Sequence record: ON528737
Strand: one strand, 5' to 3'
Origin: Shigella phage ESh27
DNA: 64,000 bases
Shown here: positions 1,271-31,124 of the stretch, piece after piece
Layout: the number at the start of each line of letters is the position of its first letter
Numbering within the stretch: the stretch's first letter is position 1
Translations under genes and position numbers: made by a program
The notes under the pieces: model-generated
Told to the model about the DNA's origin: nothing
Seen by the model: only the letters and a program-made list of their open reading frames with translations
The model's database searches: none

Positions 1271-1558
1271 ATGCTTACTAAAATCAAAGAAAATCCTGCC
1301 ACTGAACTTGTTATTCGATGTGAAGAACTTGCAGAGCTTTATCAGGTTAACCGAGAAGTATATCGTAGTGTTGTTGCCGATATGGCAGACGAAGTATGTT
1401 CTCGTATTCCTTTTAGTGTCGATTTCAATCATATGAAGCCTGGTGAAATCACTATCGTATTTGGTTCTGACTATACTGAAGAACGGGCTTTTAATGTCCT
1501 AGAATATGAAATGTCATTCTTTGACATACAGGACTACATTGATAGTTATAAGGAATGA
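1271..1558 (+). CDS. hypothetical acidic protein (95 aa); possible Arn-like DNA mimic
   Basis: About 21 Asp/Glu vs 9 Lys/Arg; size and position near asiA match T4 arn (92 aa) but sequence identity not verifiable from memory. Confidence 0.45.
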   Translation: MLTKIKENPATELVIRCEELAELYQVNREVYRSVVADMADEVCSRIPFSVDFNHMKPGEITIVFGSDYTEERAFNVLEYEMSFFDIQDYIDSYKE

Positions 1559-29372: not shown

Positions 29373-29705
29373 ATGTCTGAAGTACAACTCCCAATTCGTG
29401 CTGTTGGTGAATATGTCATTCTGGTTTCTGAACCCGCTCAAGCAGGTGATGAAGAAGTTACCGAATCAGGACTTGTGATTGGTAAACGTGTTCAAGGTGA
29501 AGTTCCTGAACTATGTGTAGTTCATTCTGTAGGTCCTGATGTTCCTGAAGGTTTTGTTGAAGTCGGTGATTTGACTCCACTACCAGTTGGACAAATTCGA
29601 AATGTTCCACATCCATTTGTGGCTTTAGGTCTTAAACAACCTAAAGAAATTAAACAGAAATTCGTAACATGCCACTATAAAGCTATTCCGTGTCTTTATA
29701 AGTGA
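29373..29705 (+). CDS. 31: gp31 co-chaperonin (GroES analogue for capsid folding)
   Basis: 110 aa; [34 protein letters not shown]...[11 protein letters not shown] essentially as recalled for T4 gp31. Confidence 0.94.
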
Positions 29706-29713
29706 TATAAATA
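29706..29713 (+). promoter_or_regulatory. possible late promoter TATAAATA upstream of rIII
   Basis: Exact TATAAATA directly after gene 31 stop, ~118 nt before rIII ATG. Confidence 0.3.
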
Positions 29714-29829
29714 ACTATATGAAGAGAACACTCTTCTAAGCGGTAGCCTACAACTGAGAGACTTGTCGAAAGAAGGTGAAATTCAGACGAACGTGGCTAC
29801 TAAATATTATCTCGAATTGAGAATTTAAA

Positions 29830-30078
29830 ATGATTAAACAATTACAACACGCTCTTGAACTGCAACGCAACGCATGGAATAATGGCCACGAAAACTACGG
29901 CGCGTCAATTGATGTTGAAGCCGAAGCACTGGAAATCCTGCGATATTTCAAACATCTGAATCCAGCACAGGCCGATCTTCGTGATATCCTGGCTCAGAAA
30001 GATGAATTGAAATATGCTAAGCCTCTGGCTTCAGCAGCTCGTAAAGCAGTTCGTCATTTTGTTATTACCCTGAAGTAA
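29830..30078 (+). CDS. rIII: rIII lysis-inhibition accessory protein
   Basis: 82 aa (T4 RIII 82 aa); position after gene 31. Confidence 0.85.
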   Translation: MIKQLQHALELQRNAWNNGHENYGASIDVEAEALEILRYFKHLNPAQADLRDILAQKDELKYAKPLASAARKAVRHFVITLK

Positions 30079-30448
30079 GTTAAATCGAGGAGCCGTCGAA
30101 TTGTCTGATTATCGATTTGCGAATCGGTATGTTTTAGAAGTACCGCCCCGACAATTTTACGGTGTACCTCTTGAATGTTGTTCTTATAACGGTAAGTGCA
30201 TGCTACCCCGAGGTGATGGCTAATCGGGAGTACGCCTCAAGGCCTATATATCCATCAGTATATATCTTATCCTCGAGAAATCGAACCCGGAACCTTTAAG
30301 CTAACGGTGTGCAACAGATAAGAGTTATAAGGTATGATGACGGGTTTATGGTTATCCTGTCGTTAAATATCCAAAACCTATGTTCCCCTTGAGGGCTTGA
30401 GCAGGCAATGTCAATAAGTCCTGCATTTTCATTTAAAGAGAATTTATA

Positions 30449-30625
30449 ATGGCAAAACAAACTAAAGCAAAGAAAGCAGTTGAAAAGAAAGTCGGTGATT
30501 CTAAACGCGCTGGATACAAGCGTGGGTCGAACTCTCGTATTAATCAAACAGTTGAGAAGATCATGCGCAGAGCACGTGCAGTTCTTCGAGATGATGCTTC
30601 TCGTTTTGGAAAGGTTGTTGCATAA
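30449..30625 (+). CDS. small basic protein (58 aa, Lys/Arg-rich)
   Basis: ATG 30449, stop 30623-30625, followed at 30631 by a perfect GGGAGAC-UUCG-GUCUCCC terminator; below the track's length cut-off. Confidence 0.5.
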   Translation: MAKQTKAKKAVEKKVGDSKRAGYKRGSNSRINQTVEKIMRRARAVLRDDASRFGKVVA

Positions 30626-30630
30626 TTTTA

Positions 30631-30652
30631 GGGAGACTTCGGTCTCCCTTTT
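30631..30652 (+). terminator. rho-independent terminator after small basic-protein gene
   Basis: GGGAGAC-TTCG-GTCTCCC hairpin followed by TTTT. Confidence 0.7.
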
Positions 30653-30684
30653 GTGTGTTTAGGGCAGAAAAAGTTTAAAAAGAT

Positions 30685-30713
30685 GTTTACTCTCCTGTAG
30701 GATGTGTTACTAT
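30685..30713 (+). promoter_or_regulatory. early sigma70-type promoter (paralogue A cassette)
   Basis: -35 GTTTAC, 17-nt spacer ending GATGTGT, -10 TACTAT. Confidence 0.55.
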
Positions 30714-30755
30714 AGACTTGTACCACCTAATCAATAAAACAAACTGGAGAATAAA

Positions 30756-31124
30756 ATGAAAATCAATCTGAACTCATACATCGAATGTAAAGACCACGAC
30801 GGTTATAAAGCTATCGAAATTAAAGAATTCCAGTGGATGTTATACAAAGAGCAATTTGAGATCGTAGGTTGTATGACCCCTGAAGGTCCTTCAAATGATT
30901 TCTCTTGGAAAATTGTGTTAGCAAACTTTTTCACAGGTGACACATACGAATTAAAAACTATTATTACCGGTAAAATTCGTTCAGAAACATATGTTGACGA
31001 AGAAACTGGTTACTCTGAAGATGTTACATGGTATCAAAATGGACGCATTACAGCAGATAACCTTATCGAAAAAATGAAAGCCAAAGGTGTTTTAAATTTA
31101 GACAATTGGATTAAAGTTGCATAA
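30756..31124 (+). CDS. hypothetical protein (122 aa), paralogue A
   Basis: Own early promoter 30685-30713 and GGAGAATAAAATG leader; shares CMTP-containing core with the next ORF. Confidence 0.55.
   Translation: MKINLNSYIECKDHDGYKAIEIKEFQWMLYKEQFEIVGCMTPEGPSNDFSWKIVLANFFTGDTYELKTIITGKIRSETYVDEETGYSEDVTWYQNGRITADNLIEKMKAKGVLNLDNWIKVA

Follow-up and report, generated by a model that had tools for sequence, protein, structure and literature searches.

Phage T4 encodes two small stable RNAs, rnaC and rnaD, that lie in its tRNA cluster and are processed like tRNAs. T4-type phages also carry PeSL (promoter-stem-loop) cassettes, in which an early promoter is combined with a simple stem-loop (PMC2839356, PMC4122927). 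Beyond this group, comparative genomics has brought to light orphan structured RNA motifs between the genes of phages and bacteria, in the Weinberg/Breaker surveys that feed Rfam (PMC2864571, PMC5737381). Here we describe a structured RNA element of 152 nt in Shigella phage ESh27 (sequence record ON528737), within a 64,000-nt stretch of DNA that is referred to as the window and whose numbering is used throughout. The element occupies the center of the gap between rIII and gene 30.9. An earlier note, made from the sequence alone, had singled out this gap as free of open reading frames (ORFs) and rich in inverted repeats, and had proposed for it a structured non-coding RNA, a regulatory leader, a decayed gene or a mobile-element scar. 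Although T4-type phages are among the best-studied genomes, the RNA is unannotated in every record inspected.

Structure of the 152-nt Element

The element is very probably a real, functional structured RNA. A closing stem, P1, leads into a four-way junction that carries P2/P3, P4 and P5, and nested in P5 is a three-way junction with P5a, capped by a GNRA loop, and P5b (Table 1). Support for this fold comes from two alignments. A structure-blind MAFFT alignment of 22 sequences provides the fairer test, because the other alignment, of 43 copies (36 of them distinct), was fitted to the covariance model and leans toward structure. In the MAFFT alignment 97.3% of cells are paired and 20 of the 44 pairs are compensated, with 27-42% pairing in shifted registers; the corresponding values for the model-fitted alignment are 99.0%, 29 of 44, and 25-43%. 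None of 500 shuffles reached the observed values in either case. Within P1, A-U is replaced by G-C in 14-15 sequences, and CUUAUAAC/GUUAUAAG alternates with the compensating variant CUUAUAGC/GCUAUAAG. P4 was seen in the first alignment as AUAUAU/AUAUAU, AUACAU/GUGUAU and AUGCAU/GUGCAU, and a further compensatory set comprises UCGA-GAAA-UCGA, CCGA-UAAA-UCGG and CUGA-GAAA-UCAG. The tip of P3 differs in the copies of Yersinia phage JC221 and EcS1, and the two compensated pairs of P5b come from the copies of Klebsiella phage Olmo and IT22. Covariation across aligned T-even relatives, a check that the earlier note had proposed, thus supports the fold, and the option of a structured non-coding RNA is strongly supported for the central 152 nt of the gap. 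Stems contain G-U or U-G pairs at four positions, which would be A-C mismatches on the opposite strand; the folded strand is therefore the plus strand, in the same sense as rIII and 30.9.

Of the 152 positions, 63 (about 40%) do not vary across the 22 sequences of the MAFFT alignment; these are concentrated in the junctions and the loop of P5b, as GGCAAGKGCAUG, CCUnAnGGCCUA, ACCYGGAMCC and GCUAACRGUGnGCAAC, and the loop and junction of the P5 domain, ACCCGGAMCC...GCUAACGGUGUGCAACAG, are invariant. Two candidate pseudoknots read by eye did not hold: the IT22 variant, with its compensation inside P5b instead, contradicts a pairing of GCAUG with UGUGC, and EcS1 contradicts one of AAG with CUU in the P5b loop. 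The junction at 30197-30202 holds the self-complementary GCAUGC in most Tevenvirinae copies, and the palindrome CAUG in all copies; that this could allow RNA-RNA dimerization is pure speculation.

Two of the three inverted repeats that had drawn attention to the gap are true helices. CTTATC/GATAAG is P5, in which six of seven pairs covary, although its coordinates had been off by one and are 30266-30271 and 30317-30322. The GCAGG...CCTGC hairpin (30401-30405 and 30420-30424) is likewise real, and is kept in other genera with different stem sequences. The third repeat, CCTCAAGG (30235-30242) with CCTTGAGG (30387-30394), is present as sequence, but the pairing is rejected. Its first half falls on a junction strand of the element that does not vary, and its second half belongs to a local hairpin, CCCC-UUGA-GGG; in Kosakonia phage 305, which has CCUCAUGG versus CCCCUAGAGGG, the changes are uncompensated.

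A decayed protein gene, or an unconstrained spacer with chance repeats, is refuted by the tests of covariation, coding and conservation. In its favor, some GenBank records annotate proteins across the element and the folding energy is ordinary, but from one record to another the annotated ORFs change strand and frame, and the shuffles fall short of the covariation. Stops occur in all six frames of the 36 distinct copies, none of which has an open frame across the element, and the variable columns show no 3-base periodicity (33, 32 and 36 by position modulo 3). The element is, moreover, more conserved than its coding neighbors. GenBank labels across the gap are inconsistent, and include "hypothetical protein", on one strand or the other, as well as "1,4-alpha-glucan (glycogen) branching enzyme, GH-13-type" (for example in OR525701, MZ868638, PP658200, OR352951, NC_018855, MK327945 and NC_031087), and these protein labels look like artifacts of automatic pipelines.

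Distribution, Conservation and Mobility

About 400-440 phage records bear the element, always in a single copy. In Tequatrovirus, Mosigvirus and Dhakavirus 178 records contain it, and a version that is ~92% identical occupies the rIII-30.9 locus in Klebsiella, Enterobacter and Kosakonia phages of other genera. Full-length matches to its covariance model, R1, lie between rIII and 30.9 in the Tevenvirinae genera Tequatrovirus, Mosigvirus, Dhakavirus, Jiaodavirus, Karamvirus, Kanagawavirus and Roskildevirus, and also in Citrobacter and Serratia phages. Pseudotevenvirus (JC221 and Olmo) carries the element at a different locus, after the uvsY operon, in a long ORF-poor stretch ending at a terminator. 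The third context is that of PKM.Lu.22.1, a 76-kb podovirus of the Grimontviridae related to Salmonella phage 7-11, where the element scores 142 bits and stands between an SSB-like gene and the intrinsic terminator that precedes an ECF sigma gene. At all three loci the element has the sense of the upstream gene. No protein partner is common to the three contexts, in which the neighbors are rIII and 30.9, the uvsY operon, and the SSB-like and ECF sigma genes, respectively.

The element has crossed between phage families. PKM.Hi.22.6, a sister of PKM.Lu.22.1 with 98.6% identity, lacks it, as does phage 7-11, and the two PKM phages differ at this site by a clean insertion from P1 to P1. The same P1-to-P1 boundary separates T4 from G4500, so that gain and loss are precise and no protein gene is attached. 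Because T4 and most Tequatrovirus and Mosigvirus phages are without it, the element is dispensable. It is under strong purifying selection. In comparisons with other genera, the element has a nucleotide identity of 78-97%, versus 54-92% for gp31, rIII, 30.9 and 30.8. The mobile-element scar proposed earlier was thus right insofar as this is an insertion/deletion module found at different loci and in different phage families, but the strength of the selection means that it is no scar. Searches further afield added little. A sequence pattern scanned against bacterial genomes gave no matches, blastn against 5,426 Escherichia coli genomes found no match to the element, and a scan of metagenomes, like additional viral scans, yielded nothing beyond T4-like copies near the lineages found before. 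A degenerate pattern of the 5' half picked out 37 extra loci in viral contigs, all of them chance occurrences and none with a model match.

Several observations concern the surroundings of the element. Most Mosigvirus phages (HX01-type; extracted locus L003, about 985-1040) have an unrelated insert of ~50 nt where the window has the 152-nt element and T4 has nothing, and the junction between TTGAATGT and ATGATGAC is a recurrent insertion/deletion point. A motif of ~30 nt, AGGUGAUUYGCUACCUUARUGCRGCU, adjoins the element and is common to T4-like phages and 7-11-like podoviruses without it. The motif includes both a Shine-Dalgarno-like AGGUGAU and a small hairpin with a variable stem (CAC/GUG, CGC/GCG, UGC/GCA), and may represent a shared recombination or regulatory cassette. 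In JC221 (extracted locus L012, about 950-1630) and Olmo (L072), ~650 nt without a convincing ORF extend from the uvsY operon to a bidirectional terminator; this stretch contains several more hairpin modules and may hold further RNAs.

Proposed Function and Alternative Explanations

With confidence a little better than even, we favor the view that the element is an autonomous, horizontally exchanged module that binds a partner rather than a switch for 30.9. The invariant unpaired core would form a tertiary pocket for a conserved partner, which might be a small molecule, an RNA, or a protein of host or phage, and the RNA would work on its own as an accessory module, whether still within an mRNA as one of its domains or after its release from one. 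A role as a dedicated switch for gene 30.9 is improbable. A 152-nt fold with ~60 invariant nucleotides, conserved above its coding neighbors and transferred as a bare RNA cassette, points to a function selected on the RNA itself.

Some considerations weigh against the view of an autonomous partner-binding module, or against parts of it. We infer the binding of a partner from the conservation pattern alone. Most of the ~440 copies are closely related, with only ~8 truly divergent lineages among them, so that the tree behind the invariance of the junctions is shallow. Covariation neither supports nor opposes P2, which never varies, and most of P5b is invariant as well; these helices are unproven. 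Single-sequence folding energy is unremarkable (z -0.58 for the element and -0.98 for the gap), a chance level at which the richness of the gap in inverted repeats is not significant in this one sequence; because this sequence by itself folds no better than shuffles, the case for structure rests on the comparison of relatives. More than 95% of copies lie upstream of 30.9, which leaves room for a cis role there.

Such a role could be that of a riboswitch or protein-binding leader, an aptamer controlling 30.9 through the hairpins at 30385-30442, or in PKM.Lu.22.1 the terminator before the sigma gene. The complexity of the fold is aptamer-like, its junctions are invariant and it is closed by P1. 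Copies in the Tevenvirinae always lie upstream of 30.9, with conserved hairpins and a possible ribosome-site-masking hairpin between, and in PKM.Lu.22.1 the element is followed by an intrinsic terminator and then the ECF sigma gene. We nevertheless regard this explanation as unlikely, and the regulatory leader of 30.9 suggested earlier is disfavored with it: T4, HX01 and STML-198 retain 30.9 and the same downstream hairpins without the element, while Pseudotevenvirus and the 7-11-like podovirus carry the element with no 30.9 downstream. The terminator and hairpin of PKM.Lu.22.1 are already present in sister phages that lack the element, and JC221 and Olmo have only a long ORF-poor stretch and a terminator downstream. 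The distance to the next hairpin ranges from ~10 to 60 nt, the hairpin module M2 (Table 1) lies upstream or downstream according to genus, and a conserved alternative pairing with the 3' strand of P1 was looked for and not found.

With a decayed gene set aside, the remaining explanations appear weaker. By analogy, the element might be a self-cleaving or otherwise catalytic RNA that processes a polycistronic transcript. An invariant junction core, a pseudo-symmetric closed architecture, the lack of an associated protein, an intergenic position and horizontal spread are features of the element that often recur in small ribozymes of phage genomes; yet no Rfam ribozyme family matches, no cleavage-site signature was identified, and 152 nt exceeds most self-cleaving classes, which makes catalysis rather improbable. 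Equally hard to favor is a cis-acting transcript element, whether a barrier to ribonucleases at a 3' end or, by analogy with the put RNA of phage HK022, an antiterminator that would modify the polymerase. The position on the 3' side of the upstream gene, in the same sense in all three contexts and with terminators downstream, would suit it, but a simple stability function needs no ~60 invariant unpaired or junction nucleotides across phage families, and to our knowledge put RNA resembles the element in neither size nor form. Least plausible is an action at the level of DNA, for instance as an origin, a hot spot of recombination or a structure in single-stranded DNA. The site is indeed an insertion/deletion hot spot, at which T4 has nothing, HX01-type phages another insert and others the element, and the neighboring modules are shuffled. 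Against a role as DNA, the strand-asymmetric G-U pairs and the constant sense orientation fit a transcript, a duplex DNA site needs no compensatory stem changes, and no T4 origin is known to lie at the locus, nor does the T4 annotation place one there.

The element might even found a new functional RNA class, either a new ribozyme or a stand-alone ligand- or protein-binding RNA that virulent phages of enterobacteria exchange as a protein-free accessory cassette; this we consider less likely than not, but a real chance. As a decoy or sponge, for example, such an RNA could capture a host factor or immune signal and would be a counterpart of the small anti-defense proteins encoded in the same hyperplastic regions. 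If the element were a ribozyme, an orphan aptamer or an RNA anti-defense factor, it would offer a new tool and reveal a new layer of phage-host biology. Already, a bare RNA cassette is seen to have been transferred between Straboviridae lineages and into a 7-11-like podovirus. Near-identical pairs with and without the element, namely PKM.Lu.22.1 and PKM.Hi.22.6 and many Tequatrovirus pairs, constitute natural controls, and make its function directly testable. A model of the element ought, at a minimum, to be added to Rfam and to the pipelines that annotate phages.

The rIII-30.9 Gap and Its Probable Transcript

The window derives from a T4-type phage of the Mosigvirus group, and over 29700-30800 its best match is Escherichia phage phiC120 (98.5% identity). 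Genes on the plus strand follow the order cd, 31.1, gene 31, rIII, gap, gene 30.9, 30.8. The gap, 370 bp from the stop of rIII to the start of 30.9 (30079-30448), proved as real as had been claimed. It is the largest ORF-free stretch of the 64-kb window when ATG-started ORFs of at least 40 amino acids on either strand are counted, the runner-up among internal stretches being 130 bp; ORFs inside it have TTG or GTG starts only and do not exceed 45 amino acids. About 1,000 phage records match parts of the gap. Its outer parts (30079 to ~30181 and ~30334 to 30448) are common to T4 and most Tequatrovirus and Mosigvirus phages and its center is absent from T4. The whole is a mosaic of RNA hairpin modules.

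The element lies in the 3' untranslated region of rIII. A scan for sigma-70-type promoters returned three sites in the scanned region, against 2.9 expected, and none within 30079-30448; a scan for intrinsic terminators made its sole call past 30.9 and none inside the gap. With no promoter or terminator inside the gap, the element is most likely transcribed within an rIII-element-30.9 RNA, which is the simplest reading. The terminator past 30.9 is likely to form the 3' end of this transcript, and TATAAATA, which resembles the established T4 late-promoter consensus, is a candidate for its source.

Four other hairpin modules accompany the element in the gap, and a fifth possible hairpin overlaps the ribosome-binding region of 30.9 (Table 1). 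M1, which is common to T4, has the stems GAGG...CCUC, GCCGU...ACGGU, AAUUGUC...GACAAUU and CGAUU-UGCG-AAUCG, and its GGAG could be a RegB cleavage site. A TTG-start ORF of 40 amino acids (30101-30223) begins in M1 after GAGGAG; its start codon reads CTG in T4, where the ORF is therefore not kept. M2 (GUAUGAUG...GGUUAUCC...CGUWAAAYAUCCRAAACC) lies downstream of the element in the window and in Tequatrovirus, and its tail, CGUUAAAUAU.CAAAAC, is invariant wherever it has this position. M2 lies upstream of the element in Jiaodavirus (extracted locus L005, about 1428-1475), which indicates that the modules of the gap have been shuffled. The small hairpin CCCC-UUGA-GGG is kept in relatives as CCCC-UAGA-GGG, CCC-UUUGA-GGG and CCC-UUA-GGG, and the position of the GCAGG...CCUGC hairpin is taken in other genera by GGGAGC/GCUCCC, GAGAG/CUCUC or ACUGG/CCAGU stems. 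In place of this simple hairpin, a structure of ~58 nt precedes 30.9 in Jiaodavirus, Karamvirus and related phages (extracted loci L005, about 1675-1735; L009; L021). It has two CGAAAG motifs enclosed by GGGAGC...GCUCCC and one inner pair with compensation (CCGA/UCGG and CUGA/UCAG), and it has no Rfam match. The possible hairpin over the ribosome-binding region of 30.9 has an analog in other genera, UCUCC...GGAAGA.

Table 1. Features of the element, the rIII-30.9 gap and its surroundings (window positions unless extracted loci are named).
Feature	Position	Strand	Evidence
Structured RNA element, 152 nt, full covariance-model length	30182-30333	+	Model R1, 177.7 bits, E 1.4e-35; only copy in window
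P1, closing stem, CUUAUAAC with GUUAUAAG	30183-30190 with 30324-30331	+	5/5 modelled pairs compensated
P2, GGU with GCC	30191-30193 with 30242-30244	+	Never varies
Junction AAGKGCAU after P2 5' strand	within 30191-30201	+	Invariant columns
P3, long hairpin	30202-30214 with 30219-30235	+	8/10 basal pairs compensated; apical part variable
Junction CUnAnG, then P2 3' strand GCC; overlaps CCTCAAGG	30236-30244	+	Invariant columns
P4, hairpin UAUAUAU/GUAUAUA, variable loop	30245-30251 with 30258-30264	+	4/7 pairs compensated
P5 (CTTATC/GATAAG)	30265-30271 with 30317-30323	+	6/7 pairs compensated
P5a, GAAA tetraloop	30273-30276 with 30281-30284	+	3/4 pairs compensated
P5b	30285-30289 with 30305-30310	+	2/5 pairs compensated, mostly invariant
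M1, extended imperfect hairpin, common to T4	30087-30170	+	Consensus fold of 8 relatives (25 pairs, 4 compensated); single-sequence fold
M2, hairpin GAUGACGGG...CCUGUCGUU, then invariant CGUUAAAUAUCCAAAAC	30336-30377	+	Alignments; pairing read by eye, no statistics
Small local hairpin CCCC-UUGA-GGG, contains CCTTGAGG	30385-30395	+	Alignments
Hairpin GCAGG-(14 nt)-CCUGC, then AUUUUCAUUU, just upstream of 30.9	30401-30424	+	Position kept across genera; not called a terminator by scan
Possible hairpin UUUUC-AUUUAAA-GAGAA, overlapping 30.9 ribosome-binding region	30426-30442	+	Read from sequence
T4-late-promoter-like octamer TATAAATA, just past gene 31 stop, upstream of rIII	29706-29713	+	Sequence match
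rIII, lysis-inhibition accessory protein, upstream gene	29830-30078	+	ORF; PHROG 1457, E 1.6e-42; annotation in relatives
Gene 30.9, small basic protein of 58 amino acids, downstream gene	30449-30625	+	ORF; PHROG 1427, E 1.4e-30
Strong intrinsic terminator AGGGAGAC-UUCG-GUCUCCCU, then U-run, after 30.9	30630-30649	+	Terminator scan
Motif of ~30 nt adjoining the element	Extracted loci L073, 1555-1585; L094, about 1500-1530; L012, 1253-1285; L005, about 1462-1490; L007, about 1352-1385		

Comparison with Known RNAs

The 4,227 covariance models of Rfam 15, a search of which the earlier note had recommended, gave no match inside the element at E up to 10 in the window or at E up to 1 in six divergent members, and ARAGORN found no tRNA or tmRNA genes in the whole window. 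Exact-sequence and keyword searches, mostly of literature outside subscription journals, returned no description of the element, and an earlier report is possible. Several short motifs had suggested a likeness to the specificity domain of bacterial RNase P RNA. Against E. coli rnpB the best local alignment comes down to one identical 10-mer, GUGCAACAGA (rnpB positions 125-134), a segment that is invariant and largely unpaired in the element; 33 of 500 shuffles reach such a score, and the similarity is not significant. Unlike RNase P RNA, the element has no Rfam match and no counterpart of P4 or the catalytic domain, and the helix context differs; the likeness may serve as a lead only.

Riboswitch aptamers offer a formal parallel, in that the element is ~150 nt long, has a closing P1 and multi-way junctions with invariant unpaired nucleotides, and possesses a GNRA loop that could dock. 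As in riboswitches, a conserved structured domain is closed by P1, here with a four-way junction and 63 invariant positions, whereas a consistent 5'-leader position and a competing expression platform are lacking, given the three downstream contexts, variable spacing and shuffled modules. The element also differs from riboswitches in having no fixed regulated gene or recognizable expression platform, in lying at the 3' sides of transcripts, and in that the downstream hairpins exist without it.

Among RNAs of T4 itself, rnaC and rnaD (species 1 and 2; ~120-140 nt) are phage-encoded and dispensable, as is the element. The element differs from them in having no tRNA-like match, and the sequences are unrelated: at E up to 10, R1 finds nothing in T4 69000-118999, which contains rnaC (70908-71046) and rnaD (71053-71171). 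Like PeSL cassettes, the element occurs in a hyperplastic region, in which the boundaries of insertions and deletions are marked by short conserved hairpin modules that have been shuffled. In contrast to PeSL cassettes, it comes with no promoter found in the gap and is a multi-junction fold of 152 nt and 44 pairs rather than a simple stem-loop. The element also resembles the orphan structured motifs of comparative genomics, in that it too is defined only by covarying stems and invariant junctions, is intergenic and has no associated protein. It departs from the orphan motifs collected in Rfam in matching no family and in being restricted to virulent phages of Enterobacterales. We class it as a new family within a known kind, the conserved structured RNA motifs of phages.

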